From contig CM000152.2 in NCBI GenBank assembly GCA_000004695.1, forward strand, positions 5,056,001 through 5,120,000: a stretch of 64,000 nt of DNA, written 5' to 3'. The notes below the pieces were generated by a model. It was not told the origin of the DNA. It did not search any database and worked only from the letters and a program-made list of their open reading frames with translations. Below, piece by piece: positions 12,759 through 49,863 of the stretch (positions are counted from its first letter, which is position 1; each line of letters begins with the position of its first letter). This stretch comes from Dictyostelium discoideum. Lineage: Eukaryota. A program made the position numbers and the translations under genes.

Positions 12759-12970
12759 CCCTTGTCCTGTTTTATCAATTGGTGCGTGGTGTGTTATTTT
12801 GTTTTTATATTGTTGATTTATTGAGTAAATTTTATTTGTTTTTATATTTGTTTCAGTTAGAAGTGCTGCGTCCAGCTTGTTGTTGTCTAATACGGTGTTT
12901 ATTATGCTGGCAGATTGGATGGTGTTGGATCCTTGGACGTTCCAAACACCTATTCTTATTGTGTTTTTCT

Positions 12971-20785: not shown

Positions 20786-21618
20786 TTATAATTTATTTTC
20801 ATTATTATTGTTAATATTATTATTACTTAAAATTTCTTGAATTTGTTTTACTTTTTCAAGAGCTTTTATAAAATCATCAATTTCAGATTTTGAAAGTTCA
20901 TCTTCATTACCAAGTAAAAAGTTTTTACCTTTTTCAAGGAATGGTAAAACCTCTTTTAATTGATTACCAAATTCGATTTGAGTATTTTTTAATTGTTTTA
21001 GTGCTTCACTATCTTGAGAGATTAATGGTGATGATGGTAATGTCATTGATTTATGTTTATTAAGAGTTCTAGCTTGGCCAATTGATATAGTTGGATTGGA
21101 AATAGATAATGATGATGTATTGTTGTTGATTGGTGTAGTTGCAGTTGAGAATAAACTAAATAAATCAGATTCTTTACTATTTGCAAAAATATCTTTAACA
21201 TTCGATTTCACTGGTATTGAAACATGTGAACTATTATTTAATGATGATGATGAAGATGATGGTGATGGTGAAAAATGACTATTATTATTATTATGAGTTA
21301 AAATTGGTGTATGACTTTGTAATGGTGTAGTTGTTGATGATGATGATGATGATGATGATGATAATAATGTTGATGTTGATGTTATATTTGGAGTATTACT
21401 AACATTTGAAGTTGAGGAAATTAATGGAGTTGTTTTATTACTTAATGGATCAATTGGTGTTGTATTTGCTGATGATAATTGTGAAGAATATGGTTGGAAT
21501 GATGAGGTTGTTGATTCAAATGTTGAAGTCTCTGGGAATGGTAATGTATTTGCTTGTGTTGAAGGTGTAGTAATATTATTATTACTATTATTATTGTTAT
21601 TATTAATATTATTATTGC

Positions 21619-21685
<67 letters not shown>

Positions 21686-21927
21686 TGGAATTTGTCTTGA
21701 ACCACTTGATGATAAAGTTGTTGGTGGTTGAGCAGTTTTTACCATACCTGCAATTGAACAATTAGAATCCTTAATTTCCAATGCTTTTTTAATTAACATA
21801 TAAACATCTTCAACTGGTGGATATTTATAAATTCTTTTTAATGCATAAATACTATCACTTTTTAATACTTTTAAAATTTTATATATAAAGTCAATTAACG
21901 TTAGTTATATATATATATAATGATTTT

Positions 21928-21969
<42 letters not shown>

Positions 21970-22461
21970 TTACTTACAATGTTCTCTAATATAAGTTAAC
22001 ATTGAAATACAAAAATAATCAATTAAAATTAAATTTTCACCATAAGCAAAAAGAGCATCCCAAATATTTAAAACATCATCAAAATGAAATTCTCTACCAA
22101 ATAATAAACGAATCCAACGTAGTAAATAAATTTGTGGTTCAATATCTAAGGAATCCAAGTGTTGATAAAGTTCAAAATCTTTTTGTTTTAATAAAATTGA
22201 GTGAATATATTTACATTTTAAAACAACATCATTACATTTTGATGATAATTCCTCTTCTTCATTATCCTGTACACTACTTGATGATGAAGATGCTACTGTT
22301 GGTGAATTACTACCTAATGGTGGTGGTGGTGGTGGTGATGGTGATGATGATGACGAAGGTGGTGGTGGTGAAACTGTTGATGATGAAGATGATGTTATTG
22401 TTGATGATGATGATGATGTTGATGTTGATGATGATACTGTTGTTGCAGCTGCTGTTGTTGT

Positions 22462-22496
<35 letters not shown>

Positions 22497-24139
22497 AAGT
22501 TGTTGTATTATTATTATTTGTATTATTTGAATTATTTGAATTATTAGTTTGTTGAGTTGGTGCAGGAGCATACCAATCTGAAGTAAATTTCATTAACCTT
22601 TCAAAGATAGCAAAAGTATCATGTTCTAAATATTTAATATTATAAATGAAATCAACTAAAGTTGAAGATGAATTTTCATCCAATTTCTTATAGCTACTAT
22701 ACTCTTGATTGTATAAATAAATGATTGGTGCCAATAATTCATGCATACCTTGTCTATAAGAGATGATACCATTGGTTTTTGAATAAACAAATAAAATGGT
22801 TGCCATCATTTCCCTAATAACTGGATTTGAAAAGAAATCATTATCTGGATGAGTTCTCTCTAAATCAATTTTAATAATTTTTTGTGTATCTAAATTTTTA
22901 AAGAATTTATTCCATGGTGACTTTTATTTTTTTGAAAAAAAAAAAAACAAAAAACAAAATTAGTAAAAAAAAAAAAAAAAAAAAAAAAAAGATATTTTTA
23001 TATATATATAAAACATACATCGTCATTTTGAGATAATGGATCATATGTTGAATTTGAATTTCTTGGGTCAAAACAATGTTCTTCTTTTAATTTTTCATAT
23101 CTTTTTCTTTGTTGAGTAATATCTCTTTCCCATTTATCAACTCTATTAATATCTAATCCACCTAAAAATAACTAAAGTTTTTAAAAAAAAAAAAAAAAAA
23201 ATTGTTAATGAGTAAAAAAAAAAAAAAAAAAAAAACAACAAATAATTAATGAATTAAGTTATATACCTTCCAAGCAATACCTCTCAATGGTGAATATTTT
23301 AAAGCACCAGTGAATGCATTCATTTTTAAAATTTCTAAAGGTTTTTTTTCTAATGGAATGGTTGAAAAGAAGATTTTATTGAATTCAGATTGTAGTGGTG
23401 AAATTAAAGGTTCTTCTTGTTTTTCATGAATCTCTTGCTCAATTGTACCAACTGTTGTTGTGGATATAATATGTTCATCTTTTGATGCAGTTGTTACTCC
23501 CATTGAAAAACTATTATTCATATCTTTATTTGTTGTTGTTGTTGTTGTATTTTCATTACTATTACCATTATTATTATTATCAATTTCATTATTATTATTA
23601 TTATTATTATTATTTATTATTGATACAATTGGTGTGAATATTTCATGAACTACATTTTCTTTTTTAATTTGTTCATCTTGGTCACTGTCACTATCATCTA
23701 CTTTTGTATTAATGTTAACTTCTAATGGATTTACTACAATTGGTTCACTATTGATCAATGTGGATGTTGGTGTAGTAGTTGTAGTTGGTACTGCAGTAGT
23801 TGCAGTGGTTGTTGTAGTAGTTGTAACTGTATTTTCTTTAGTTACACTTATTGGTTGAGATGGTATAATTTCTTCTTGTTGTTGTTGTTGTTGTTGTTGT
23901 TGTTGAGTAGAAGTTGATGCTTCAATTGGTATTGGAGGTATTGATGATGAAATTAAAGGACTATTTGCGGCCTCTGTACCAAAAATAGATTCTACTGCTG
24001 CATCAACTTTCTTTTCTTTAGTTGGTATTGTATCAAATATTGATGACATTATATCATTTGATGTTGTGACACTATTTCTTATATTTGGTGTTGTTGTACC
24101 TGAATTTATATCTAAATCTAAAAATCCACTGGTATCCAT
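20786..24139 (-). CDS. TBC-domain Rab GTPase-activating protein, 4 exons: join(24139..23266,23171..23039,22920..21978,21867..20786)
   Basis: N-terminal low-complexity T/Q/N region, then TBC motifs across exons: ...SPLRGIAWK|LFLGGLDINRVDKWERD...LSQNDD|SPWNKFFKNLDTQKIIKIDLERTHPDNDFF (the IxxDxxRT arginine finger) ...YRQGMHELLAPIIYL (the YxQ glutamine finger) ...LRWIRLLFGREFHFDDVLNIWDALF...IREH|LLKSDSIYALKRIYKYPPV.... Donors GTATAT/GTATGT/GTAAGT with AG acceptors. Long poly-N, poly-S and poly-T tracts lie in exons 1, 3 and 4. Confidence 0.8.
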
Positions 24140-25176: not shown

Positions 25177-26373
25177 ATTATTATTATTATTATTTTTATT
25201 TTTAATTTTAGATAATCTATATTTTAAAAAAGAAAAAAAAAATCCTACATATTATTTTCACCACTACCACACATATACATATTATTACAATAGTTGTAAA
25301 TATTTTACTGTTAGTTCCATATTTTTGGTAAATTCGAATTTACACCCACCACTAGAACTGTTTGACATAAAAAAAAAAAAAAAAAAAAAAAATAATAAAA
25401 ATAATAAAAATAATAAAAAAATAAAATAAAAAAAAAAAAAAAAAAAAACAATAACAAAAATAATAATATTAATTATAAAATGTTTTTTTTTTTTAATTTA
25501 AAAAAAGTTAATGAATTTAGGAAAGAATTATAATATTTTTTTTTTATATAAATTTTATATGGGTTTATAAAAGACTGCGTAGGGAGTGTGTAATAAATAT
25601 CTATATTTATAAAAAAATAATAATTTATTTTTACATTAAACTTTTAATGTTAATATATTTTTGTAATTTTAAAATATCCAAACCCCAAAAAAAAAAAAAA
25701 AAAAAAAAAGTAAAAAAATAAAAAATATAGCCTTTAAAAGTATTAATGGGTTTATTATTATTTTATTTATTATTTTTATTTTTTTTTTATATTTTTTAAA
25801 ATCACTATCACCAATCATAAGAATATTATTCGATTTAAAATTCATCGAAAAAAAACAATGTCAATTAAAGCTATTTATTTATTGAAAAATGTATTTTTTA
25901 ATATAAAAAAAAAAAAAAAAACCCTTTTTTAAAAAATTAATTAGGGTTTTTTTTTTTAGTCATTTTTTTTTTTTTTAGTCATTTTTTTTTTTTTTTTTTT
26001 TTATTCACAATTCCTTTGCTTTTTATATTAATTATAAAATTTAAAAATAAAAAGCTCCTTACTTTCGTTTTTTTTTTTTTTTTTTTGTGTATACACTAAA
26101 AATAAAAATATTTTGTCAAACTCTGTTTAAAATAAAAAAAATAAAAAAATTAAACAAAAAAAAAAAAAAAAGAAAAAAAAATATAAAAAAAAAAAAAAAA
26201 AAAAATAAATTCAAAGTGAATAATTCCAATTTTTAAGGTTCATTTTTGATTATTCTTTTCGTTTTATTAAATAATAATAATAATAAAAATAAAAATAATT
26301 AATAATAATATTATTAATAAAAATAAAAAAGATATTTTAAATCAATTACTGTGATAACAAGTATAATCTTTTT

Positions 26374-26406
<33 letters not shown>

Positions 26407-27253
26407 TCAACTTTTATTATTTTTTTTTTAATTTTTTAATTTTTAGCTCATTTATGATTATAAAAATATTTTTATAATATTAATATAATTGTAGCCATTA
26501 AATTGTTTAAAATTTAAATTCAAAAAAAAAACCACCAAACCAAGTAAATGATCCAAATGGTGGTTATTAAAATTAAAAATAATTAAATAATTAAATAAAT
26601 AAACAAATAATAAAAAAAAAAAAAAAAAAAAGAACTAAAGAAAAAAAAAAAGGTATATTTCCCAAATAACAATATTTTTGAAAAAAGAAAAAAAACTGTT
26701 TCTATTTTTTTGTTTTTATTTGTTTGTTTATGTTTGTTTGTTTTAAAAAAAATGAAAATTTGATTAATAATAGATATTTCTTTCTTTCTCGTTCATAAAG
26801 ACACTCAAAACCCCCACAACCACAAAAAACACACATTTTACCATTTATATTATTTAGATATTATTCGACACACTTTAATAAATATAAAAAACGTATTAAT
26901 GTGATGTGTTTTTTTTTTTTTTTGTTTCTTTCATTAAACACTTTATTCATTTATTCATTTATTTATTATTTTTTTTTTATTTTTTTTTTTTGTAAAAACT
27001 AAAAACATCTTTTAAAATTATATAATTTTAATTTTAATTTATTATTATTTTTGTTAATTTTAAATCACAACTTATTAGGCAAATCAATTTAGTGATAAAA
27101 ATAAAAGAAAAAAATAATTATATAATTATAACAATAATTTATTTTTTTTTGGAAATTTTGCAAAGTGATATTATTGGTTTATTTTTTTTTATTTTTTTTT
27201 TTTTTTTAAAAAAATTATTTTTATATCTTTTATCTTTGCCTAAATTAAAAATT

Positions 27254-27304
<51 letters not shown>

Positions 27305-27658
27305 TAGAAGAATTAAATAAAATTATAAAAAAATATTAAAATAAAAAAAAAAAAAAAAAACTTCACATATCCAATTTATTAAAAAAAAAATAATTGGCTG
27401 TATTTTTATAATTATTATTTTTATTATTAATATTAATAATATTATTATTAACAATATTAGTATTTTTGCTTTAGAGTTTTTTTTTTTTTTTTTTCCTTTT
27501 TTTTTTATTTTTATAATTATTATTTTTATTTCTTTTTTTTTTTTATCTTTATTAGTTTAAACTTTTAATTTTATTTTTTCTTTTTTCCAAACATTTTAAA
27601 AAAAAAAAAACCAACATATTAATTAATTTAATTTTATTTTAAAATAAAGTAAATAATA

Positions 27659-27885
27659 ATGGAAAGTAATAAATCATCATCACATGGAGATGTATCAACT
27701 TCTCCATCATTTTTAAATAATCATCATCAATTTAATAATGGTGGTGATATAATCCCAAAAAAGAAAAAAAATAGGATAATGCATGTTGGTTCTTATGAAG
27801 TTGGCAAAACTTTAGGTAATGGTACATTTGGTAAAGTTAAATTAGGTACAAATATTTGTACAAAAGAAAATGTAAATAAATAAAT

Positions 27886-27935
<50 letters not shown>

Positions 27936-30073
27936 TTATTTTATTATTATAAAATAATTTTTAGGTTGCAATTAAATTTATAAAAAATAATAAATTATCA
28001 GGAAAACAAAAAGAAACATGTTTTAGAGAAATTGATATTATGAAATTATTAGATCATCCAAATATAGTGAAATTATTAGATGTTGTTGATAAAAGAGAAG
28101 AAGAAGGTACAACTTATTTAATAGTTGAATATGTATCAGGTGGTGAATTATTTGATTATATAGTTGCACGTGAATATATTAAAGAGAAAGAAGCAAGAAA
28201 ATTTTTTAGACAAATGATATCGGCCATAGAGTATTGTCATGCAAATTTAATAGTTCATAGGGATTTAAAACCCGAGAATTTATTATTAGACTCAAATGGT
28301 GATATTAAAATCTCGGATTTCGGATTGAGTAATAATATTCAACCTGGTAAGCTATTGGAGTCATTTTGTGGCTCACCATTGTATGCAGCACCAGAGATAT
28401 TGAAAGCAGAGAAATATTTAGGACCACCCGTTGACATTTGGAGCTTAGGCGTTATCATGTACGCCGTGCTCTGTGGCAACTTGCCATGGGAGGGCGACTC
28501 GCAGGCAGAGATCTCGTTCAATTCAGTGCATGGTAATTACGAAGATCCCACCCATTTATCGGCAGAGGCAGTTCACATTCTACGAAGAATGATTGTACCA
28601 AATCCAAAAGATAGAGCAACGATTCAAGAACTTAAAAATCATCCATGGACCAATATTGATTATCAAGAGATTCCAAAATCTCATTTACCACCAAGAGATG
28701 CGGTTCATGAGATTAAGGAAGACATTTTCGCTCATTTAATTTCACTTGGTTTTCCAAATACAAAAGAAACTCGTGATATAATATTAAAGAATGAAAATTG
28801 TGGTATTGTAAATGTTTATCATTTACTATTGGATAGATATGCTTCTAAAGAAGTTGAAAATTTAAAATCAAAATTAGAATTACTCTCAAAAAGAAAGAAA
28901 TCTTTCTCTGATAAAAGAAATCCTTCAACAAATTCTTTAGCTTCAATTCCAGAAGATTCAAATGATTTATCTTCTAATAATAATAATAATCAACAACAAC
29001 AAAATTCACCACCTTCTAAAACTAATTCCTCTTCCACTTCTTCATCAAATAGAGAATCAAATAATAATTCTCCTTCTCAAGGTTCAATAAAAGAAATTAG
29101 TTTAGATGAGTTGGATAATCATATAGAACAATTGGATAATGATATTGAAAATTCTGATAATAATAAATCATCTTCACTTACAAGAAGATCTTCTGATCCA
29201 AATAAAGATATTGAAAATTCTTTAAAAGCTCAAGGTTTATTTTCAAGTTATTCTGCACCTGGTGTACCAAATTCTGATCATAATTATGATTTTGAAACTT
29301 ATCAACAACAACAACAATATCAACAACAACTACACCAACAACAACTACAACTACAACAACAATATCAATCACAAATACAATCCGATATATCATTCCCACA
29401 TGATGATGTTGAAATTGAAAGTTATTCAATTCAACAGCAACAACTACAACAACAACAACAACAACAACAAGAACAACACAAAGAAGATAATAATAAACCA
29501 AATACAAATTTAAGAAGAAATTCAATTGCAGTTTCAACATTTATGGAAGATGAACCAAATGAAATGCCAATTAATAATTTGTATAAAATGAATGAACAAA
29601 TTCAACAACAACCAATTATTGGTGGTAGTGGTAATGTAATGAGATCACAATTTAATCAAACATTACCAACAATTGATCAACAACCAGTTATTGAAGCACC
29701 AAAAACGAGAAGAATGAGTTTAGATTCACGTATGTTAAATGGTGATCAACAATCATTGGTTGAAAAGAATCAACATATGGCAAGTCCAAGAACTTCGAAA
29801 GGTATATTTAAATCTTCAACTACCACTACTAAATCACCAGAGAAAACAATTATCGAATTGAAAAGATCTCTCGAAGAAAGTGGTTTATTCACTAAAAAGA
29901 AAGGTCCTTACCTTTTCTTATGTTTTGATGAAGATAACTCTGTTAAATTTCAAATCGAAATCGTTAAAATTTGTAACCTTGATTTAACTGGTATTCAATT
30001 AAAAAGATTAAGTGGCGATACTTGGAAATATAAAGATATTTGTACTGAATTAGTTGAATCAATGAAATTATAA
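27659..30073 (+). CDS. MARK/Par-1-type AMPK-related Ser/Thr kinase with UBA-like and C-terminal KA1 domains, 2 exons: join(27659..27871,27965..30073)
   Basis: Exon 1 carries the glycine loop (LGNGTFGKVKLGTNICTKEN). Exon 2 starts VAIKFI (the conserved Lys) and continues [35 protein letters not shown] and DIWSLGVIMY. The UBA-like stretch is IKEDIFAHLISLGFPNTKETRDIILKNENCGIVNVYHLLLDR, the spacer is Q/N/S-rich, and the KA1 tail reads KGPYLFLCFDEDNSVKFQIEIVKICNLDLTGIQLKRLSGDTWKYKDICTELVESMKL*. GTAAAT donor at 27872, TTTTTAG acceptor at 27964. Probably one of the mrk genes. Confidence 0.88.
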
Positions 30074-30186
30074 GTTTTTTTTTAAAAAAAAAATAAATAG
30101 TAATAAATAATAAAAAAATAATAAATAATAAATAATAATAAATAATAAATAATAATAAATAATAAATAATAATAATAATAAATAAT

Positions 30187-30217
<31 letters not shown>

Positions 30218-31020
30218 ATTAAATAATATTTATATTAATAAATAAAAAAATAATAATACTTAACGATTAATCACCTATGTATTGATATATATAAATAAAA
30301 AATTTTAAAATCTCAAATCATTCTTTTTTAAAAATAATATAATATCACATAAAAAAAAGAGATAAAATTCTTTTTTTTTGAATAATAAAAATTTTTAATA
30401 TTTGATTGGAAACCAATATTTAATTTTTATATTTTTATATTTTTATTTAATATTTTAATTAAAATTTTATTTTATTTTAAAAAAAAATTATAAAAAAATG
30501 TGTGATAAATAATAAAATCTAAAATTTTATTTGTTTAAAAAAAAAATGAAAAATAAAATGAAAATTAAAATATTAAGGTGTCAAATTGTTTTTAATAATA
30601 ATAATTATAAATAATAAGGTATTTAGTCCATTGGTAATCAAAATGTTCCTCCTGAAATGGAGTTCTCATTCCAGCCATAAACGATGACATATTATTTACT
30701 TTGTTTTTTTTTTTTTTTTTTTTTAATTAAATAAATAATCTTTCCATTTTCTTTTCGTTTTTTTTTTTCTTTTCCTTTTTTTTTTTCTTTTCCTTTTTTT
30801 CCTTTTTTTTTTTTTTTTTTTTTTAAAAATTTAATTTTATAAACCTTAATATGAAATAGTATTTTTAACCACATTTGAAAATTATGAATTTTCATTTTTT
30901 CTAAAAATAGTAAAAATTATTTAACCTATTTTTTTTTTTATTAAAATCAATATTTAAAAATAGAATTTTTTATATATACTTCTTAAAGTTACTATAAATA
31001 CCCAAAAAAATCAAATTATT

Positions 31021-31063
<43 letters not shown>

Positions 31064-31098
31064 TTAATTTTATTGTTAAAAAAAAAAAAAAAAAAAAA

Positions 31099-31704
31099 AT
31101 GAAGATATTATACTTTATATTTGTAATAATAATTAATATTTTATTAATTTTGAATCATGTTAAATCAAAATATAATACGTTTATTTTTGAAAATACAGAT
31201 GGCTTTCCGGAGTGTAATAGAGAAGTTCCAATTGATAAATGTACCTTATTTTGTGGTAGACTTTTTGGTGGTCTTTCATATGATAGTGAAAAGTTAATAT
31301 TTTATGAAGGTGAAAATTGTTATACAATGATCCATGGTGAGTTTTTATGTAGTGATACAGAAAGAACTTCTTTTAGAATGGATAATTATTTAGCCGATGA
31401 TGAAAGTTGGTATAAAGCATTTTTCAACTATTTGGTAAATTGTACTTGGGACGAAAAAAATACACCGGAAACACCATCACCAACAGAAAATGCACCAAAT
31501 ACAAGTGGTGGTAGTAGTGAAGGTAATCATTACACTTATAAAAGTAGTAGTAGTAGTAGTGAACATATCAATGATATTCCAACATATTCCCACTCTGGTT
31601 ATGGAAATTATGGGGAAGATCCTCAAAGAAACATTGGTATTTCATTATCAAGTTCTTTAATTTTTATTTCAATTTTATTTTTAATAATTTTTATAAATAA
31701 TTAA
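31099..31704 (+). CDS. Small secreted or GPI-anchored Cys-rich protein (201 aa, single exon)
   Basis: N-terminal signal peptide (MKILYFIFVIIINILLILNHVKS), 8 Cys spread through the mature region, N-glycosylation sequons, an S/T-rich stalk and a C-terminal hydrophobic tail (ISLSSSLIFISILFLIIFINN*) typical of a GPI-attachment signal. Confidence 0.6.
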   Translation: MKILYFIFVIIINILLILNHVKSKYNTFIFENTDGFPECNREVPIDKCTLFCGRLFGGLSYDSEKLIFYEGENCYTMIHGEFLCSDTERTSFRMDNYLADDESWYKAFFNYLVNCTWDEKNTPETPSPTENAPNTSGGSSEGNHYTYKSSSSSSEHINDIPTYSHSGYGNYGEDPQRNIGISLSSSLIFISILFLIIFINN

Positions 31705-31814
31705 TTATTATAAATATCAAATTATAATAAAATTTTAAACAAAAAAAAAAAAAAGAGATAAAAATCTTTTATTATATCTTCGTTTATTTATTAATTTTTT
31801 TTTTTTTCTTTTGT

Positions 31815-31846
<32 letters not shown>

Positions 31847-32115
31847 CTTTTTTTTTTGGGTGGGAAAATATTGCCAATGTCAGTAATTTAATATTAAAAT
31901 TATTAATACTATTTATAACTATTGTCTGATTATTTAAATTCAGCTGTTATTATTTTTTTTTTTTTTTTTGTTTTAAATGTTTGGAAGTCGCCATGAACCA
32001 TTTTTTTAAAAATTTATAAAGGAGTGTATTAATTTGGTTTATGGTTTGTGATTTGTAAATTTTTTTTTTGTTTTTTGTTTTTTTGTTTTTTTGTTTTTGG
32101 ATAATTTTTGGTAGT

Positions 32116-33966
32116 CTACATTGCTTCCAATCTTTTAACGATTTCTTGGAATGAAGGTCTTTGTTGTGGATCTTCAGACCAACATTCAGTGATAAGACGT
32201 GTGAATGGAGCTGATACTTGTGGTGGTACGATTGGTCTTAATTTATGTTGACCAACAGAAATTACAATTTGGAAAGTTGGCATACCTTGATATGGATCTT
32301 CTCTTGTTACAATTTCCCATAAAACAATTGCAAATGAGAAAACATCAGCTTTCTCAGTATATGGGTCATTTCTTAAAACTCTGTTTAAAAAAAATCATAA
32401 TAAATAATAATAATAAAAATAATAAAAATAATATATATTAATATATATTAATAATAATAATAATAAAACCCTTTCTATTATTAATAATAATTATAAAAAA
32501 ACTTACTCTGGTGCAGTCCAACAAGGTGTACCAACAGGTGTCATTGCAGTCTTTTTATCTAAATGTTTCTTAAATCTAGTTGAAAGACCAAAATCTGAAA
32601 TTTTAACTCTATAATGTTCATCAACTAAAAGATTATGACTCTTTAAATCTCTATGAATAACAATTGGATCACAACAATGTAAATAATTCTATTTTTTTTT
32701 TTTTTTTATAAAAAAAATAAAAAAGTATATTAATATTTTAAAAAAAAAAATAAAAAAAAAATTGTGCTATCTAAATTGAATTATTATATATATATATATA
32801 TATATATTACATACCATTCCTTTTGCAATATCTAAAGCCATTGATTTCATTCTTGGCCAATCTAGAGAAATTGAAGGATCATGTAAAATTCTATAGAGAC
32901 TACCTAATGGCATATATTCCATAACTATTAAAATTTCAGGTGGATTATTACAAGTACCTAAAAATTGACAAATATTTGGATGTCTTAATTGACTCATGAT
33001 TGTAGCTTCTTGAGCCAATTCATTTAAAAAGTCTTCATCGTCTTCATTCAATAATTTTGCCTTTTTAATTGCAACAATAATACCTCTCCATGTACCTGTA
33101 AATACTTCTGCACAACTACCTCTACCAATTCTATTTTGAACTACAATCTCTGATATATCAATTGGTTTAATTTCAAATAATGTTTTATAATCTAAAAATA
33201 ATTTAAAAATAAATTAAAAATAAAATTAGTATTATTATTATTATTACTATTACTATTATTATTATTATTATTAAAATTAGATTAAATTCTAAATTACTTA
33301 CCAGTTTTTAATAATGGTGATCTTTCATCATCATTTATACCAATTGGTAAAGCATGTTTACTACCATTTAATCTCTTATTTTTAATTCTTAATCTAATGA
33401 TGAAATAGATACCAACGGCAATGATTAATAAAACAGCGATACCAACACCAACGACGATATAGATAATTTTTTGATAATTTGGACTTGTTGGTTTAACAAA
33501 AGGTATAGAGGCAGCAGTATAAATGAAAAAGGTAGTATTTAAACAAAAACTTGAACCACCATCCTCACTTAATTGAATGGTTACATTGTAATCACTTGGT
33601 GTGGTTGAATTGGATTGAAGCATTGGTGGTACAACACAAGAGGCACAAGTTGAATTAATGTATGTACCCGTTGATATTACCGTACCAAATTTACATTGAA
33701 TTTGTGATGATTGATAAAATTGTTCACCAATAAAATAAACTGTTTCACCACCTGTAGATGGTGCTGTATTTGGTACCACACTATTCACCTTAAATGCAAC
33801 TGGTCCATAAAATATATTTGCTGTTACCTTACCAATACATGCTACATCAGTTTCAAATAAATTAAATATAATTGAATTATTACTACCATATCTAAAAATA
33901 TATAATAAATAAAGAATTAATTAATTTATATTGTACAATTGATATATTGGATAAAAATATATATAT

Positions 33967-34031
<65 letters not shown>

Positions 34032-34879
34032 TATATTATTTACCTATATGATGCTAAACCATTTGGATCAACATCTGGTAATGTACGAGGTGAAAAAGAT
34101 ATTTGACAATTTGGACATTGTGAAGGTGAACTTTTAGAAATGAAAAAGATACCAGCATTTTCTTCACCATTTACCAATGAAAAAACCATACTAGTTGGAG
34201 GTATAACATTGAACATACCAGTAAAAGTTACAACGATCTTATGTACTACAAACAATCCAGTTGGTGGTACAGGATCATGGAAAACATAACCATTTGCCCA
34301 TGCTGATGATGTATTACAAAGGTAATTTTGTGTGAAAACTGATGGACTGTTACATGATTTTGGGTCACAAACCTGTTCTCCACCTGTCATATAACCAGAA
34401 AATGTTAAATTAGATTGAATGGCTGGTGCTGAATCATCACTACTACTTTTTTTATTTTCCTCACTAAATGATGATGATGATGATGATGTTGATACTTGAT
34501 CAGTCCTATCTGCTGCTTTCATCATCATCATCGCTATGTCCATCTCCTCCTTCATCTCCATCTTTTTCTTATTATTCCTCGTTAATAGTTCTTGTTCTAT
34601 CTCTAATTTTGGTTCTAAATCTACTATTGCTACATTATATAATAATTTGTTTTTATTTGTTTTTTTTATTTTTTTTATTTCTTCTTTCCCTTTTTCTAAT
34701 ATTTGAGATGATGATGATGATGATGATGGTGATGGTGATGATGATAATGATAATACTTTATTTTCATTTATTCCATTAATTTTATATGATATTGAATATC
34801 CTGTACAACATATCAATATAAAAAATGAAAATAATATCGCTATTTTATTCATCCGTATATATTTATTTATTATTATCAT
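32116..34879 (-). CDS. Receptor-like TKL protein kinase with signal peptide, IPT/TIG-like ectodomain, single TM and cytoplasmic kinase, 5 exons: join(34879..34044,33891..33312,33181..32815,32688..32507,32380..32116)
   Basis: Exon 1 has the signal peptide ([16 protein letters not shown]) and a Cys-containing ectodomain. Exon 2 has an IPT/TIG-like segment ([23 protein letters not shown]...[23 protein letters not shown]), the TM ([24 protein letters not shown]) and juxtamembrane RLRIKNKR. Exons 3-5 give the kinase: [23 protein letters not shown], ...AKGM|[36 protein letters not shown]...WTAPE|[27 protein letters not shown]...[13 protein letters not shown]. Donors gtaaat/gtaagt/gtatgt/gtaagt; exon phases are consistent. 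Confidence 0.8.
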
Positions 34880-35551
34880 TTTTTTTTTCTTTTTTTTTTT
34901 TTATTTATTTATCTATAATCTATTCTTTTGTTTTTTAAAATTAATTTACTATTACTATTATTTATTATTATTGCTATTATTACAAATACTTTTATTTATT
35001 TCACTATTTTTTTTATTTTTTTTTTTGAAAAAAAAAAAAAAAAAAATTTTAGTAAAAGAAATAGATATATGTTTTTAATAGCAAAAACAACAACTACAAT
35101 AGTACATTGATTTTAATTATTTGTCGTTTCAATTTTATTATTATTATTATTTTTACTATTTTATTTAATTATTATTATTTATTTATTTTAACGAAATAGA
35201 TTTTTTTTCGAAAATTTAAAAAAAAAAAATTTTTAAAAAAAAAAAAAAAAGATTGGAAAAAAAAAAAAAAAAAAAAAAAATAAAAAATCAAAAAAATTAA
35301 AAAAATAAAACAAAATAAAAAAAAACAAAAAAAAAAAAAAAAAAAAAATAATATAACCAAAAAGATATTTTTAATATATTGATAACTCTTAAATTATCGA
35401 TAATTTTTTTTTTCAGTAATTAAATATGTAGATTTTATTATTTTAGTTATTATTATTATTATTTTTTATTATTCTATAAATTAATTTTTTTTAAATTAAA
35501 TTAACACTTTGGTTTATTATTGCCAAACTTTTTTCCCCCAGGCTTTTTTTT

Positions 35552-35601
<50 letters not shown>

Positions 35602-35772
35602 ATATTTTTTTTTAAAGTGGTAATAAGATATTTTAAAAAAAAAAAAACCCCCTTTCATTTTATTAATTAATATCATTATAAAATATCAATAAAAGTAAAA
35701 ATAAAGATGTAAAAATAAAAGTAAAAATAAAAGTAAAAATAAAAATAAAATGGGATTAGTTTTTTTTTATGT

Positions 35773-35807
<35 letters not shown>

Positions 35808-35808
<1 letters not shown>

Positions 35809-37614
35809 TAATCACTATCATCTTTAAAATTTGCCATTGGATCATCAGATCTTTTTCTTTTTAAATTATAAGCTTCCATTTGTTCCTCTGATACATTATA
35901 ATCATCAGCAGATAATGAATTATATTTAATATTTCTTTCATCTTTTTCAACTGATTTCTTATTTTCTTCATCTTGATCTTTTAATGCTTTTTTTAATTTT
36001 TCTTCTTTTTCTTTTCTTTCTTTTTTATCTTTTCTTTTTCCTTCTTTTTTATTATGTTTATCATTATCTTCATTTGATTTATTTAAATGTTGTTCTAATA
36101 ATGAGGTTGTGGTGGTAGTAGTTGTAGTTGTAGTATTATTATCGTCATCATCTTGTTGATTTTCTTGTTGTATATGATGTTGTTGTTGTTGTTGTAATTG
36201 TTTTTCACGTAATAATTTACCTTTTTCACCTGTACAATAAGCATTTTTAATTAATTGTCTGCAACAAGCGAAACCCCATTGACCATTTTCCCAATATGAA
36301 CCCCAAATTGATTTATGATTATTTAAAAATACATCCTCTTCATATTTTGATTTTACAATTTTCTCTTCACCCTTGATTAATTTACCAGAGGAACTGTATT
36401 CGGTGTAAATTTCCGATTGTGGTACTTTATCGATTTCCTCCTGTTTCAAGAGATGTTCTTCACCACCATATTTAGTTAAAAGTTGATTTCTAGTTTGTTG
36501 TTTTAATTGTTCTTTCTTTCTAAGGAAATCGGCATGTAAGAGGGCAGCTTGTGATGGTGCACTAGAGATATCGACATCTTGACCCTTTTCTTGTGCTTCC
36601 CAAGCGAATCTTTGTAAATCTCTAAACTCTTTAGTCTCACCACTTGTACGTGCAAAATTATCACCAGCAAATTTAATATCGTTTGGATTTGCATTAGGTA
36701 ATGGGTTATCTCTCATTGAACGACTCTTTGGTTCGTAGAATGCAGAGTTTACATCTAAATTATACAAATATTTTGCAGTATCTTCACGAATTCTAAGATT
36801 TCTAATTGTGGTTCTTGACTTTTGATCTAATTTTTGTATTGGTGCAACGGTTTCACTATCATATGATCCCTCCTTCTCCTCATTATCCATCAATTCTTTT
36901 GATAATGTTTCATCAACATCAGGTGTCTTTTTATCACCACCACCACCATGTTGTTTAATTAATTCTTGTAGTTTCTTTTTCTTTCTTTCTGTATCTGCTT
37001 TTTCATAGATATCCATCACCTCTTTGTATGAGGATGGGTCGTAACCATTGTATGGATCACGTTTACTATCATAATCCAATTCTAACTTTTGAATGACCTC
37101 ATCTGGTTTTATATCATCATTTGTAAATTTTGCACCCAACTTTCTTGGACGCTCACAACAATCTTTGGTTTTATGAGTCATTGCACCACAATTTTCACAT
37201 GCACCTTTTCTGAATTTGGTTGCTGCTTCACCAGTGGTTGCACCTCTTAAATACCATCCTTTATCCATCTCCTTCTTTGTAACACCACGTTGATGTTTTA
37301 AACTTGGTTTATTTGCATTTAAATACCATGGTGCTTTAAGAATATACTCTGGAATATGTGGATTAATCTCTTTACCCTCTTCATCTAACTCTGCTGGTGC
37401 ATTACCAGCTTTTCTTGCTTCATCTAATTCTTTCTCTTTCTTATACTCATCTCTTGTTTTTCTATGACCTTTTTTTTAAAAGAATAATAATAATGTTAAA
37501 ATCTTTTTTTTAATAATATAAAAAAACAAAAAGAATAAAAAAAAAAAATAATAATTTATTATATTATTATATAATAAATTAATTAAATAAATACTTACTT
37601 ATTGACGATGCCAT
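35808..37614 (-). CDS. slu7: Pre-mRNA splicing factor SLU7 homolog, 2 exons: join(37614..37599,37468..35808)
   Basis: MASSI|SHRKTRDEYKKEKELDEARKAGNAPAELDEEGKEINPHIPEYILKAPWYLNANKPSLKHQRG...FRKGACENCGAMTHKTKDCCERPRK (the SLU7 CX2CX4HX4C zinc knuckle) ...RNLRIREDTAKYLYNLDVNSAFYEPKSRSMRDNP...WGSYWENGQWGFACC...NLKRKRSDDPMANF, collinear with human and yeast SLU7. The tiny first exon ends in a GTAAGT donor, and the acceptor is ...AAAAAAG at 37469. Confidence 0.88.
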
Positions 37615-38299
37615 AATTTTGGGAACTTATAAAAAAAAAAAAAAAAAAAAAAATTTATTTTTTATTTTTTTTTTAAATTTTATTTTTTTTTTATTATTTT
37701 TTATTTTTTTAATTTTTTTTTTTTAATTGACTATTTTTCAACAAATATATATTATTATTATTATTATTATAATTTTCTTCATTTCCTAGGTAATAAAAAA
37801 AGTTAGTGATAAAAATAAAAATAAAAAAAATAAAAAAAAAATAACTCATTTGTGAATTTGGTTCTATTAAATGTCCAAAAAACATGGAGTATCCAATTAT
37901 AGTAAAGAGAAACTTTACAATAATTGTGTTTATTTTTAGAAAATGTTTGGGAATAAGTAATTGATAACTATTAAGTTTTGTTATTTTGGAAATAATCATA
38001 AATAAAATCACAATTAGGATTAAATAAAATCACAATTAGGAATAATCATAAAATATTTTATGTGAAAAGAAGAACTTGGAAAACCCCGGGGTTTAAATTA
38101 TTCATTTTAAAATTACCAAAAAAATAAAAAAATAAAAAAAAAAAAAAAAAATTCAGACGAAATTGGATTTTTATTTAAAATCGAGAAATCTCTTGCAACT
38201 GTTCAAAAAATCCATTTTTGAATTCTAATTTTTTTTTATTTTTTTTTTTTTTTTATTTTTTTTTTTTTTAATTTTATTTTTTACCCCAAAACTTGCATT

Positions 38300-38333
<34 letters not shown>

Positions 38334-38399
38334 ATTTTGTTAATATATATATAAAAAATCTAACTAAAAAAAAAAAAAAAAAAAATAAAAGAGTAGTAG

Positions 38400-39085
38400 A
38401 TGTCAGTAAAAAACAGAAATAATACAAATAAAATGACACCTAATAGATCACCATCAATAACAACAACAATACAACAACCACCAAATTCAAATACAATAGA
38501 CCCAAATGTAATACCATCATCACAAAATAAATTAAAAATAGATTTTAGGGCGATATCAATCTTTTCATTGTTTTTATTTTCAGGTGTAGCAAATACACTA
38601 TTAGTTCAATTAATTTATAATAATATTTCATTTAGTATGTTTTTAAAATCTAAATTAGATTTTTAATTAATAATAGCATAATGGTATATGGGATAATTTA
38701 TTAATTCAAAATTTATTTTATTTTAAGATCCTAAATCAATGTTAACAAACATTTGTATTTTTTTAGGATATGCACTTTTGAGTCTCTTTAAGGATCCAAC
38801 AAAAAATATCAATAATAATAATAATAATACAAATATCAATATCAATAATAATAATATTAATAACACATTAAACGCAACAACATCACCAATCAATTCAACT
38901 ACAATACAATTGGGTACCTCAACAATAAACACTAAAAAACAAAATTTCAATCATATTAAATATATACTATTAGCGTTATTTGATTGTTTAGCCAGTTTAT
39001 TAACCACAATTGGTCAAATTGCTGTTGGAAGTGGTGTATGTAAATAATATTTAGTTTTTTTTTTAAAAAAAAAAAGTTCATACTA

Positions 39086-39131
<46 letters not shown>

Positions 39132-39945
39132 TTATAACTAGTTATTTCAAGTTTTATTTTCATCAAAGATTATTTTTGCGGCAATTTTAACAAGATTTTA
39201 TTTAAAATCATATGTATCACCAAAGAAATGGATATCGATTCTAACCATTTTCTCTGGTTTATGTATTGCAGTTTTTAAAATTTCATCACATTCAGTTCAA
39301 AATAATGATGATACAAATAATTCATGTAAGTTATATTTATATATATTTAAATTATTATAATTTAATTTAATTTTATTAATTAATTTTATTATTATTATTA
39401 AAAAAAAAAAAAAAAAAAAAGATTTATATTTTGGAACATTTTGCGTTTTATTTGCAGCATTTGTATTTTCAGCAAGTCATATTTTTGCAGAATCAGCTAT
39501 AAAGGCATATGATTTAAGACCTTATGCATTTGCAGCAAAATATGGTACTTATAGTGTAATAGTTTGCGTTTTTTATATTTTAACAGTAACATTTTATAAT
39601 AGAAAAGAATGGATTGAAATCCCAATTGAACAAACATCATCAAGTGATATCAAATTGGTATTGTTTTTATTTATGATTTTAATGATCACAAGTGTTGTTA
39701 GATCAAGTAGTATGTACACAGTTTTAGCTGAACATGGTACAGTTTCAATGGGTGTTTTATATGCATTACAATCAATCATTGTTTTCTTTTCAAGTGCTTT
39801 CTTTTTATGTGATCCAAATCATCCAACAAAACAAAATCAATGTTTATCACCTCCAAAATTACTTGGTTCAATCATTGTAATTTTTGGTGTTTTCATGTAT
39901 AATAAAGCAAATAATTTAAAGCAAACTCAACATATAAAAATTTAA
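38400..39945 (+). CDS. Multi-pass membrane transporter of the drug/metabolite-transporter (DMT) superfamily (SLC35-like or CRT-like), 4 exons: join(38400..38634,38728..39035,39142..39325,39422..39945)
   Basis: About 10 predicted TM helices (SIFSLFLFSGVANTLLVQLIY; ILLALFDCLASLLTTIGQIAVGSG; IIFAAILTRFYLKSYVSPKKWISILTIFSGLCIAV; VLFLFMILMITSVVRSS; LLGSIIVIFGVFMYN) and an N-rich loop in exon 2. Donors gtatgt/gtatgt/gtaagt; acceptors ttttaag/actag/aaaaaag. The family assignment is tentative. Confidence 0.6.
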
Positions 39946-40067
39946 AATTAAAATAAAAATAAAATAAAAATAAAATAAAATAAAAATAAAAATAAAATAA
40001 AAATAAAAAAATAGCGTCACAATCACTTCACTAGATATTTTTTTTTTTTATTCCAATAAATATCCAA

Positions 40068-40129
<62 letters not shown>

Positions 40130-40178
40130 AATTTTTTTTTTTTTTAATATTTCAATTTTATCAACAATAATAATAAAA

Positions 40179-40182
40179 ATGG

Positions 40183-40272
<90 letters not shown>

Positions 40273-41381
40273 TATTTTGGAAAATTTGGAAAAATAATTT
40301 ATTAAAAAATAAAATATTTGGGTATATTTCAAATAGATATTTAGTTAAATCAATTAGAGACTTAAATATAACATTTAAATATGAAGAGATAATTAGTTTT
40401 GGATGGATGTTAAAAAACAAACATTTTCAATTATTGTTTGATAAAGTTAGAAATGGTGAATATTTAGTATTTAATGATAAAGTAGAATATGGTAGAATAA
40501 TTGGAAATAATAATAATTACCAATCAATTAAAGGTTTCGAATATTTCAAATATTTTGAAGGATCATGGTTATCGAATAATGAAGAATTCTTAAAGAATTT
40601 ATTTACAAATTATTCAAATTCATTTAAACTCACAACAGATATAATCGATACAACTATAAAATGTTTAGTATTTTATAAATTACCAATGGCTTTAAAAATA
40701 TATTTACAACAAACTTTAAATCAATTTGAAATTTTTCAAAATAAAAGTTATGAATTTATTACAAATAGCAATGGTATTGGTAATAGCATTGGCAATAGCA
40801 TTAATAATAATTATAAAAAAATAAAGTATAGTATTATTGAATATTTTAAATCATCAACTGGTTTTGAATTATTAAAAATTTCAATTTGTAGTAATTCATT
40901 TGAATGTTGTGAAATTGTTTATCAATTTTTACAAACATATTGTAATTATACACCATTAGAAATTACATTGAATATTATAGATTCATTGAAAATCATTATT
41001 ACAGTTGATTCAGATTGTCGATTAAGATGTAAACAAATTGATTTCATCTTTAAAACATTTACAATTAATAAAACAAATTTTAAAATTAAAGGTTTATTCA
41101 ATAGAATTTATTTATTTAATCAACCAATTTCAAAATTATTAAAAATGTGTAAATGTATAATAAAATATAAAGATTATATTAATTTCAATTTCAATGATAT
41201 TAATAATAGATATGATGAAGTTGAAGAACAAAATAGTAATAATAACTCACTTGGATATGGCAGTTTTATAACTAATAATAATAATAATAATAATAATTAT
41301 GAATTATTAAAATTAGAACAAATTAAATCATTTAAAGAATCGTTAAGAAATGAAAATAAATTAGATCAATTTATTTTATGA
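40179..41381 (+). CDS. Hypothetical N-rich protein (400 aa), probably the N-terminal part of a larger frameshift-split gene together with 41422..42987
   Basis: Starts with a 28-residue poly-Asn tract, then non-repetitive Cys-containing sequence (..CSNSFECCEIVYQFLQTYCNYTPLEI..DCRLRCKQIDFIF..). A TGA stop lies 40 bp before the next ORF, in a different frame. Confidence 0.5.
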
Positions 41382-41421
41382 ATTTAGCAATGATTATGAA
41401 AATGTTAGATTAGTTTATAAA

Positions 41422-42987
<1,566 letters not shown>

Positions 42988-43223
42988 AAATATTTCTCAT
43001 TATCTAACTTTAAAATTAAAACTAAAAATAGAATCACCAAAAAATAAAAATAAAAATAAAATTATTAAAATGAAAAAAAAAATAAAAAAAAAACTTTTTT
43101 TTCCCTCCTTTTTTTCATAAAAATTTTTAATGAAAATTTTCATTTAAGTGCTTTTTTTTTTTTTTTTTTTATTTGTAAATTTTAGTGCGATTGTTATTAC
43201 AAATAATAAACATTAACATTTAA

Positions 43224-43358
43224 ATGACTTCGACAACTTTAAAGAGGAAGAAAGGGCAAGAAAATGAAATAAATGAAAATATTAATAATAATGAAAATGA
43301 ATATATTAATAACAATAGCGATAATGATAATGATAATGATAACCTCAATAAAGATTTA

Positions 43359-43416
<58 letters not shown>

Positions 43417-44183
43417 GTAATGAAAATGATAGTAATTATTTCAATAATTTATCAACTAAAACTCAACCTTCTTCAATGATTATTGATAATGAAATTAGTT
43501 CATCACCTCCACAACCTTCTCAACCAATTCTAAAAAGACCACCAACAAGAGAAAGAAAGCAAATACATAAACTATTTTCATTATCCGATGATGATGATGA
43601 TGATAATGATGATGATAATGATGATGATAATGATGATGATAATGATAACGATGATAATAAAGATGAAAAAAAAAAAGAAAAAAAGGAAAAAAAAGAAAAA
43701 AAAGAGAAAAAACCAAAACAAGAGAAAAAACCAAAACAAGAGAAAAAACCAAAACAAGAGAAAAAACCAAAACAAGAAAAAAAGTCAAAACAAATTCAAG
43801 AAGTTCAAGAAATTCAACAACAGCAACAACCACAACAACAACTTGAAAAAGAAGAAAACAAATTGGAAGAAAAAGAAAAAGAAAAAGAAAAAGAAAAAGA
43901 AAAAGAAAAAGAAAAAGAAAAAGAAGAAGAAGGAGAGGAAGAAGATAATAGTAAAAAAAAAAAGAAAAAACAGAAAATTGAACCTGACCAACCAATTAAG
44001 AACTCAATCCCTAAAAAACCACCAACAACTAGTAGTAGAAAATCAAAGAATAAACCGCCAAATAATAATAATAATAATTGTAATATTTTATTAAATTTTT
44101 TAAATCCTACATCAACCACTGCCGCCACCACCACCAACACCACCACCATAGATACAACCAATACAACCAATACAACCAATACA

Positions 44184-44220
<37 letters not shown>

Positions 44221-46620
44221 GTAATAATAGTACACCAAATATAATAGAATCAATGTCATCACCAACATCAGAAGATGATTCAAAACCAATTCACCCATTC
44301 TTTGGAGAACAACAAAAGAAGAAAGAAAGAAAACAGAGAATAGAATCAGTGAAATCAATTAATGATGATCCAATACTATTGGAGAAAACTAAAAATGCAC
44401 CATTACCAGAAATGTTTTTATCTAAAAAAGAAAAAGATGAAATCTATACAGCTGCTCAACAAGAGAGATTTAGATTAGATATTATGAAATCAAATGAAGA
44501 TCATGAAAAAATTTTAGCTGGTAAACCAGTTCATCCTTTCTTTTTTTCACCACCCCCACCTCAATCCTCTTCAACAAATTCAAATTCCTCCTCCTCCTCA
44601 TCTTCTTCAGACACAATACCAACAACATCATCGTCATCATCATCAATAATTATAGATTTAGAAGAAAAGAAATACCAAATTAAAAGATTACTTGAGTTTC
44701 CAGTTGAAGAATCACATATAGGTTGGTATGATATTAACCAAGATGAAAGTATTAAATTATCTTTACCACCTTCAAATAAACAACTTTTAGATAAATTTAA
44801 AAGATCAAATTTAAAAACTTCAACTATTGATTGTAATAGTTTAATCATTCATAATCCAAATCAATTAATACCAAATTTCGATAAAATGTTAACAACAATT
44901 GAACAACAATTTCCTTTCCTATCTTCACAACATAGTTCAATATCTTCTATTAATGACTCACCTTTAAAATCATTATCACAACAATCTTCTGAAATTATTA
45001 TAATTGATAATGATAAAAACAACAACAACGACAACAACGGCAATAACGACAATAATAACAATAACAACGATGAAATTGAAATTAATGAAGATAAATTATT
45101 TGAAAATATATTAAATTATTATAATAGTATAAAGAATGATGATAATGATAATGATAATGATGATGATCAAGATGATGAATTTAATAATGATTCAAATTTT
45201 ATAAGAATAGATAATTTTAAAGATATTAGAGATATTAAATATATTTATAATGAATTTTTAAATAGTTTAAGTAATAGTGGTAGTTTTGGTATTAATAATG
45301 TTCAAGGGAATTTATTATCAAATAGATACTATTCTACAATTGAAAATTTAAATTTATTTAATGAATTAAATCATGAAGTAATAACATTTTTCAATCAATG
45401 GGTTGTAGGTTGGAAAGACAAATTAGAAAAGAAAGCCAACAAATGCAGTACTAGTGGTAAAATTAAAAAATCTTCAAAAAAGACTGAACTTGATGAAATT
45501 TTAAAATCTTCAATACTTATTGTTGGTCCATTTGGTTGTGGTAAGAGTTCATTGGTCAATATAAAATCAAAACAAAATAATTTCACAATCTTAGAAACTA
45601 ATCCATCTTGTAAACGAAGTGGTAAAGCTATCACTGAACTATTAGGTGAAGCAACTCAATCAAAAGCTTTAAACATTTTAAAGAAATCAAATAATGAAAA
45701 TAATCAAAATAATAATAATAATAATGATGATGATACTTCTCAAAACTCATCGCCACAACAACAACAACAACAAACAATAACTTCTATAACTTCAAAAAAA
45801 AGAGGTAGAAAATCAATTTCATCTTTAAATAATAATAATAATAATAATAATAATTGTGAAATTGGTGAAATTAATAAAAATTTAATTCTAATTGAAGAGA
45901 TTGATATTCTATATGAAGAGGATAAAGGTTTCAATAATTCAATTTGTACATTATTAAATAATACCAAAGTACCAATAATTATGATTTGTAATGAATTAAA
46001 TCCATCAATTAGTAATTTAATTCAAGAAAGTGGTATCATTTCATTGTATATGTCAAAACCTACAACTCAATCATTATCATTGTATTGTTGTTTCATTCTC
46101 TTGAAAGAGAAAAAGTACAAACTTCTTTCATCTCAAAATACTTTAAACTCTTTAAATATTCATTCTTTTATCATTAATAATCAAATTGATATTAGAAAAT
46201 CTTTAAATAATTTAGAATTTATAGTTAATCATAAAAATCAACATCATCAAACTATTTACAATTTAACATTCTATATGTTTAATGATTTATTTAAAAAATA
46301 TAATTTTAATTTTTTTAATATTTTATTTAAACTACCAATTAAAAATAAAGATAATCTTGATAACGATAATCATGAAATTATAGTTGAAAAAGAAATAGGT
46401 AAGTTTTTTAATTTAATTGTTATTACTAAAATATAAAAAATACTAATAATATTTATAAAAAAATAATAATAATAATTAGAAAATAGTGAAGAAATAGATG
46501 AATTTGAATTATTTAATGATAAATTCAATTTTGTTAATACTTCATTAGTTGAATTTGATATCAATTTATATTTTAATAATTATTTGGAATATATTAATAA
46601 TAATCAACACAACAACAACA

Positions 46621-46697
<77 letters not shown>

Positions 46698-47045
46698 GAA
46701 TTATTGGAGGATATTTGGGAATTATCAGAAACATTTTCTACAAATGATATTTTATTAAAAAGAAATTATCCTTATGATCCAACATCTGAAACTGTATGTA
46801 TTACAACTAATTTCTTTTTTTTTTTTTTTTTACCTCTTTATTAACTTTTTTGGAAATAATATATAGGGAGAGAATGAAATATTTGAAATTTTAGAGAATT
46901 CACCGACATATATTACACAACCACAATCATTACATTATGATGACTACTCTTATAAAAGCTACTTTCCAAATTCATTAGATTTTAGCATACCAACCTGTAT
47001 TTCCATTCAATCAATTGAAAATTATTTATTAAAACAAAAAGAAAC

Positions 47046-47088
<43 letters not shown>

Positions 47089-47373
47089 TATTCTAAATTT
47101 AATTTATTGAAAATTGAAGACCAATATAAGGTTATAAAGAAAACAACAATTGAAAATTCAATTTATAATGAAATTAAAGATCAATTTTCACTTAAACATG
47201 GTTTCATTGCATCCAGTAAAATGTATGTAGAGTTTACACCATGGCTATCTGATATTTGTTATTCAGAAAAAGTGAGAAAATTAAATAATCCAAAGAGAAG
47301 TAACAGATTTACTCATTATTTAGATTATACCCAAAATCAGATTGATATATTATTAAAATTCCGAATTAAATAA
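43224..47373 (+). CDS. ELG1/ATAD5-like RFC-like-complex large subunit (AAA+ ATPase), 3 exons: join(43224..46398,46480..46793,46867..47373)
   Basis: Long acidic/basic low-complexity N-terminus (D-runs, (KPKQEKK)x4, (EK)n). Walker A is ILIVGPFGCGKSSLVN. Walker B/sensor is NLILIEEIDILYEEDKGFNNSICTLLNNTKVPIIMICNELNPS, which matches ATAD5/Elg1 ILFEEVDVIFDEDSGFLNAIKTFMATTKRPVIL. Exon 1 ends ..VEKEI at a GTAAGT donor. Exon 2 starts at 46480 (ENSEEIDEFELFNDK...KELLEDIWELSETFSTNDILLKRNYPYDPTSET) and ends at a gtatgt donor. Exon 3 runs GENEIFEILENSPTYITQPQ...FTHYLDYTQNQIDILLKFRIK*. Confidence 0.8.
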
Positions 47374-47476
47374 TAATAATAATAACAATAAAAAAACAAA
47401 TAAAAATAGAATACAACATTTTTAATTGCAATATTTTTTTTTTTTTTCTTTTTTATTTATTTATTTTTGTTTATTT

Positions 47477-47513
<37 letters not shown>

Positions 47514-47543
47514 ATTCTATTCTATATTTAATTAAAGTTTCTA

Positions 47544-47576
<33 letters not shown>

Positions 47577-47619
47577 GAAAATTAAGAAAAGAAATAATTA
47601 TTATTATTTATATTTAATT

Positions 47620-49863
<2,244 letters not shown>

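Follow-up and report, generated by a model that had tools for sequence, protein, structure and literature searches.

Locus organization and reading frames

The stretch of Dictyostelium DNA analyzed here (64,000 nt, 22% GC; hereafter, the window) contains two adjacent open reading frames (ORFs) on the forward strand, ORF1 (400 aa, C-terminus KLDQFIL) and ORF2 (521 aa), with 40 nt between the TGA of the first and the ATG of the second (Table 1). ORF2 is at +1 relative to ORF1 (codon starts at 0 for ORF1 and 1 for ORF2, modulo 3), and its frame is open already from 41365 (INLFYEFSNDYENVRLVYK-M...), overlapping the open frame of ORF1 by 17 nt. A first-pass annotation had reported the coordinates of both ORFs, the KLDQFIL-TGA end and the opening of the second frame at 41365, and all of these positions were correct when re-checked. 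Stop codons are expected at 9.1% of codons, and 11 of the 9971 open frames in the window reach at least 400 codons (median, 5 codons). The lengths of ORF1 and ORF2 are far beyond chance; the 19 open codons that precede the ATG of ORF2 are not significant alone (P ~ 0.16).

On one side, the neighbors are a TPT-type transporter gene and, beside it, slu7 (DDB_G0281901), and on the other side a gene of ~1330 aa. The slu7 gene contains introns; its ORF carries the Pfam Slu7 domain, has D. discoideum proteins as its best matches (99% identity), and falls in a cluster with AX4 DDB_G0281901 and proteins from seven further assemblies. In the AX2-like annotation, the 1070-aa ORF found downstream belongs to a longer gene of 1331 aa; the ORF weakly matches an AAA-type ATPase (AAA_22, E = 0.009) and contains a GPFGCGKSS Walker-A motif.

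Elsewhere in the window there is a non-LTR retrotransposon, whose first ORF (444 aa) and second ORF (with an RVT_1 reverse-transcriptase domain, E = 3e-33) overlap by 25 nt in different frames and are genuine overlapping shifted ORFs. A tRNA-Thr(CGU) gene lies ~430 nt from the 5' end of this element, as is expected for a tRNA-gene-targeted (TRE-type) element.

The GC content of the gene body is 17-25%, versus 0-8% in the upstream intergenic DNA, and at the junction of the two ORFs it is 17-22%, the same as in both ORF bodies. A poly-Asn tract from an (AAT)n repeat begins the N-terminal part. The codon log-likelihood, trained on the other long ORFs of the window, is positive in frame 0 until ~41355 and in frame 1 from ~41400.

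Table 1 Positions of the features at the locus and in other parts of the window.
Feature	Position	Strand	Evidence or remarks
Non-LTR retrotransposon	9537-14317	-	
Retrotransposon, second ORF (open frame)	9537..12995		RVT_1 domain
Retrotransposon, first ORF	12971..14305		444 aa
tRNA-Thr(CGU) gene	14744-14829	+	
Intron of a gene elsewhere in the window	21904-21970	-	Between open frames 21970..22923 and 20786..21904
Upstream intergenic/promoter region	39946..40178	+	Long A/T homopolymers; GC 0-8%; 67% identity to D. citrinum with many gaps
ORF1 as read in the window	40179..41381	+	Stop TGA at 41379-41381
N-terminal gene part (ORF1 to lesion), frame 0	40179..41369	+	Identical to L002; matches homologue N-termini
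N-terminal poly-Asn (AAT)n tract	40185-40268		
Lesion, TTT versus two bases elsewhere	41370..41372	+	DNA alignments to six assemblies
Out-of-frame tail of ORF1, I-L-stop	41373..41381	+	Premature TGA, created by the extra T
Apparent 40-nt "spacer", in fact frame-1 coding sequence (FSNDYENVRLVYK)	41382..41421	+	Conserved and gapless; gene-like GC and codon score
C-terminal gene part (ORF2)	41422..42987	+	Orthologues read through the ATG
Internal poly-Asn (AAT)n tract	42330-42510		
Downstream intergenic region, before next gene	42988..43223	+	GC 3-13%; 66% identity to D. citrinum, 79 gap positions
Downstream 1070-aa ORF	43224-46436		Part of a 1331-aa gene in AX2-like annotation

A single ORF in six other assemblies

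Syntenic loci were retrieved from six other assemblies via the neighboring slu7 gene. At every one of them a single gene, in the same relative orientation, is flanked by the TPT-type transporter and a ~1300-aa gene, and it is one uninterrupted ORF of 882 aa (L001) or 895 aa (L003) in D. discoideum, 935 aa in GCA_054883475.1 (CM142509.1; L002), 939 aa (L004) or 1037 aa (L007) in D. cf. discoideum, and 1052 aa in D. citrinum (L005). Since the gene length equals 3 x (aa + 1) in all six, these genes have no introns, and no internal stops were found in their translations. As a check on its own reading, the first-pass annotation had proposed a comparison with orthologous loci in D. purpureum and D. 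firmibasis; in the six assemblies compared here, the outcome was one continuous intron-less ORF in all six and two genes in none.

The poly-Asn tracts differ greatly among isolates. In L001 and L003 the N-terminal one is down to 2 Asn, compared with 30 in the window and >100 in D. citrinum, and the internal one has 5-6, compared with ~60 in the window; this variation accounts for the range of 882-1052 aa among the orthologues.

The six assemblies very probably represent AX2-214, two wild D. discoideum, two D. cf. discoideum and one D. citrinum. They come from a published set that combined Nanopore and Illumina data and covers the lab strain AX2-214, wild D. discoideum, D. citrinum and cryptic sister species (Holland et al. 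2025, PMC12745789). Over 21.8 kb (window positions 25748..47629), L002 and the window share 99.6% identity, which fits the 99.5% published for AX4 versus AX2 (PMC12745789), and we infer from this that L002 is D. discoideum AX2-214 and that the window is the 2005 AX4 reference. The 935-aa gene model of L002 has the same neighbors as the gene in the window (the TPT transporter, slu7, a TIG-kinase gene and DDB_G0281897) and the same lengths of both poly-Asn repeats.

In D. purpureum (L006, GL870944.1, 5687-7464), the transporter-slu7-TIG-kinase block is syntenic and a tubulin gene is found at the position of the gene studied here, indicating that at this position the gene is confined to the discoideum/citrinum clade or that it has moved.

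One extra T divides the gene

Between 40179 and 42987, the window and L002 are identical at all 2808 aligned bases, and the sole difference is one T. The TTT at 41370-41372 of the window corresponds to only two bases in each of the six other assemblies, CT in D. citrinum and TT in the remaining five, and the alignment at the lesion is GATCAATTTATTTTATG in the window versus GATCAA-TTATTTTATG in L002. With TT in place of TTT, L002 has one open frame of 935 codons. One extra T, private to the assembly of the window, thus splits the gene.

All six other assemblies encode ...KLDQLFYEFSNDYENVRLVYKMLIPF... across the lesion, with a junction consensus of ...KL(D/N)QL(F/I)YEFSNDYENVRLVYKMLIPF..., and removal of one T from the window gives CAA TTA TTT TAT GAA (QLFYE), as in all orthologues. 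The additional base moves the reading frame by +1, and the shifted frame meets a TGA nine bases later, so that the gene resembles two ORFs 40 nt apart. We also considered that the other six assemblies might instead share a context-specific nanopore homopolymer error. The local sequence takes three forms (CAA-TTA-TTT, CAA-TTA-ATT and CAA-CTA-TTT), all of which preserve the reading frame, and this makes a shared error of this kind implausible.

Conservation and constraint across the junction

The 40-nt "spacer" is gapless and 97.5-100% identical in all six assemblies (100% in D. citrinum), and its single substitution (AGC/AGT) is synonymous in frame 1, whereas the true intergenic flanks have 66-67% identity to D. 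citrinum with many gaps. The dN/dS values of the orthologues, calculated by the Nei-Gojobori method with gap and poly-Asn columns dropped, are 0.34-0.68 before the junction and 0.13-0.56 after it (0.39 and 0.33, respectively, versus D. citrinum). Being below 1 on both sides, they indicate that both halves behave as one moderately constrained coding gene.

The ATG at 41422 is an internal methionine codon of a conserved motif, YKMLIPF, and not a start codon, because the orthologues read straight through it and the paralogues share K-M-V-L-P-F at the same spacing. In distant homologues of 902-980 aa, both halves are collinear and the motifs that flank the junction are equally spaced (LD.F ... 17 residues ... 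KM.LPF).

The sequence comparisons show that a single gene without introns spans 40179..42987 of the window, on D. discoideum chromosome 3; its predicted intact product has 935 aa. The first-pass annotation had proposed a single gene of ~920 aa with a +1 change of frame; the single gene is borne out by the six other assemblies, and the length has to be revised to 935 aa.

A dictyostelid-specific protein family

The first-pass annotation had also described the two ORFs as members of the same family. No similarity was found between ORF1 and ORF2 (BLASTP E = 17), nor does the window contain a paralogue of either one. Rather than being paralogues, the two make up one protein, of which ORF1 is the N-terminal and ORF2 the C-terminal half.

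An exhaustive HMMER search returned mostly poly-Asn noise and a few true family members, namely proteins of 949, 902 and 768 aa from D. purpureum, 806 aa from D. firmibasis and 980 aa from D. discoideum, together with DDB_G0290511 (283 aa). ORF1 matches the N-termini of five homologues of 768-980 aa (P0002, P0003, P0006, P0008 and P0019), and in three of them (P0003, P0006 and P0019) the N-terminus matches ORF1 and the C-terminus matches ORF2, collinear in one polypeptide. Like the window protein, D. purpureum XP_003293714 (949 aa) and XP_003286000 (902 aa), D. discoideum KAM9970409 (980 aa) and D. firmibasis KAK5583055 (806 aa) have an N-terminal module (LFWKIW...WMLKN...LL.DKV.NGE.L.F...LF.NYS) and a C-terminal module (GD.xTLS.LME.FF...GQIKIFKFLYENY) in a single polypeptide of similar length. 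Their identity in the matched modules is only 25-40%, and they are not orthologues but paralogues or distant relatives. The 935-aa protein belongs to an uncharacterized family that is specific to dictyostelids.

No Pfam domain was detected in the intact protein or in the full-length homologues. The first 50-100 residues (LFWKIW.N..L.NKIF...) are shared with the ankyrin-repeat proteins P0009 and P0036. AlphaFold modeling of the N-terminal 370 residues (ORF1, 11 sequences) gave a mean pLDDT of 44.5, too poor for use. A word-indexed homology search with the joined protein, with and without poly-Asn, gave no matches, and exact protein matches were found neither for ORF1 or ORF2 nor for three spliced variants; the collection searched also lacks the orthologues' own products, so the absence of matches says nothing about the AX4 annotation. 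Literature searches with the neighboring DDB_G identifiers yielded nothing, and the dictyBase gene-model papers contain no locus-specific information.

Sequencing error or strain mutation

We consider the extra T to be probably a base-calling or assembly error, presumably of the 2005 Sanger AX4 reference, in which case ordinary translation would give the organism its normal 935-aa protein. Only one assembly has the change, which is absent both from the independent assembly of a near-identical strain and from the outgroups. What counts against an error is that a run of two to three bases is not a classic Sanger error hotspot. Outside long homopolymers, the window and L002 differ at four positions in 21.8 kb (27177, 27251, 35435 and the T at 41370), and in each case it is the window that stands alone, with L002 agreeing with the wild isolates. 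The other three are isolated substitutions, all in non-coding DNA, and are likely reference errors or AX4-private variants.

The density of these window-private differences (~1.8e-4 per base) is similar in order of magnitude to the divergence from the reference that resequenced AX4 lines have in common (PMC3466296; AX4 Illumina data are deposited, e.g., as SRA056497, Saxer et al. 2012). In that work, three AX4-derived lines had 1916 candidate differences in common against the reference, which the authors ascribed to reference errors or stock differences (PMC3466296). The measured mutation rate, 2.9e-11 per site per generation (PMC3466296), is too low to produce such a density over decades of laboratory separation, and most of the differences should therefore be errors of the older assembly.

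The long A/T homopolymers that differ between the window and L002 (25976-40091; e.g., 26376, 27890, 35555, 35775 and 40081) are always longer in the window, by 1-16 bases. Because the differences all run in one direction, they seem to reflect systematic homopolymer compression by the Nanopore-based assembly rather than biology.

The alternative, a true mutation that became fixed in the AX3/AX4 laboratory lineage while the gene stayed intact in AX2 and in wild isolates, is in our judgment unlikely, though far from negligible. It would be a very young, strain-specific allele that leads to a 400-aa truncation, to a null through mRNA decay, or to an N-terminally deleted product from Met 41422. Such an allele would fit the distribution of the insertion, which the window has and which neither the sister lab-strain assembly nor any wild isolate shares, and lab strains do carry private lesions, e.g., the loss of ~9 kb at axeB in AX4 (PMC4374526). 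The dN/dS of 0.3-0.6 among the orthologues signals only moderate constraint, such that a loss could be tolerated; it is also not ~1, and no sign of pseudogene decay was seen in the gene beyond the extra T, with zero other differences from the intact allele. The absence of further differences speaks against a real mutation, as does the density of private differences, which is far above what the mutation rate allows and fits the discrepancy between the reference and resequenced AX4. Of the three options that the first-pass annotation had offered, a sequencing indel is thus favored and a genuine frameshift comes second; the third, programmed +1 frameshifting, is effectively refuted by the evidence below.

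Recoding, splicing and separate genes

Two sites could in principle support programmed +1 ribosomal frameshifting, UUU-A (41370-41373) and UUA-UGA (41376-41381), the 0-frame stop serving as a pause site, and read-through of this kind would give the junction peptide QFFYEFSNDYENVR or QFILEFSNDYENVR. A +1 slip anywhere in 41365-41381 would restore the protein, and a slip at UUU-A would yield QFFYEF, one residue off the QLFYEF of the orthologues. Known programmed frameshift sites are conserved. None of the six orthologues, all single-frame, needs a shift here, and it is because the shift is absent from every orthologue that we regard this mechanism as effectively refuted and its probability as minute. 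The local sequence points the same way: a P-site tRNA on UUA is unable to pair with UAU after a +1 move, the A-site codon after a UUU-A slip is the common AUU and not a rare one, and the 119 nt that follow are no more structured than shuffled sequences (z = 0.06). The presence of the extra T in an otherwise identical allele, in turn, points to a recent event or an error. The first-pass annotation had suggested looking for a slippery motif, and inspection of 41365-41382 revealed no shift-prone tRNA/codon pair; only the 0-frame UGA fits. The window does resemble the antizyme (UCC-UGA-U), bacterial prfB (CUU-UGA-C) and yeast Ty1 (CUU-AGG-C) sites in that the downstream frame is at +1 after a brief overlap, and a 0-frame TGA closes that overlap, as in antizyme and RF2. 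Unlike them, it has no conservation, no shift-prone pair and no stimulatory structure, and it is not a member of this class.

A short spliceosomal intron that joins the two frames is similarly improbable in the extreme. Its donor might be GTTAAG at 41342, paired with an acceptor at 41387, 41408 or 41453, or might lie at 41149 or 41236, and 28 GT..AG combinations of 46-400 nt would leave an open product of 802-920 aa. However, five of the six other assemblies have an A in place of the G of the donor at 41342, the only one near the junction, which means that there is no conserved intron. The orthologues are annotated and translate without an intron there, GC and codon scores are exon-like and positive, respectively, right up to the lesion, and the homologues align gap-free across the region. 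GTTAAG is also atypical when compared with the introns of the neighboring transporter gene, which start with GTATGT or GTAAGT, are ~90-130 nt long and are very AT-rich. The first-pass annotation had held that there was no room for an intron; the argument was incomplete, as an intron could reach into the ORFs, but its conclusion was right. A textbook Dictyostelium intron (GTAAGT...(ATT)n...TTTAAAAG) is present between two open frames elsewhere in the window (Table 1) and provides a local contrast to the junction at 41340-41430.

Two independent genes 40 nt apart, which the first-pass annotation had already thought improbable, can be set aside almost entirely: the ATG of ORF2 does stand in an A-rich context, but the 40 nt lack intergenic-type composition and divergence and are gene-like in GC and conservation, the Met is internal and conserved, and all orthologues and distant family members are single polypeptides. 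It is nevertheless true that the AX4 annotation splits some loci that the AX2 annotation joins (PMC13142454), and that it has ~1000 more predicted proteins than that of AX2-214 (PMC12745789). One such locus is tirD, which has two gene models in AX4 and one in AX2, and which was found by cDNA PCR to produce one mRNA (PMC13142454). Like the window gene, tirD is one real gene that appears as two on AX4 and is betrayed by a conserved "intergenic" stretch; the cause at the window gene is one specific base, whereas the published issue with tirD is the gene model.

Implications for the AX4 reference and gene

The gene itself is an ordinary one, and the finding carries little biological weight. For the annotation, the two ORFs should be merged into one 935-aa model, and a note at 41370-41372 should warn of a probable reference error or strain variant; otherwise, any knockout, tagging or quantification of either "gene" in AX4 work rests on a wrong model. 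More generally, where adjacent ORFs in shifted frames are met on the AX4 reference, a single-base problem is likelier than recoding.

It is a tentative and rather doubtful prospect that the most widely used reference strain carries a private frameshift allele of a gene that is under purifying selection elsewhere. If this were true, the gene would be intact in AX2, wild D. discoideum, the cryptic sister species and D. citrinum, the allele would add to the genetic differences that separate AX2 from AX4 laboratory stocks, and occasional +1 slippage at UUU-A might give traces of a near-normal protein.
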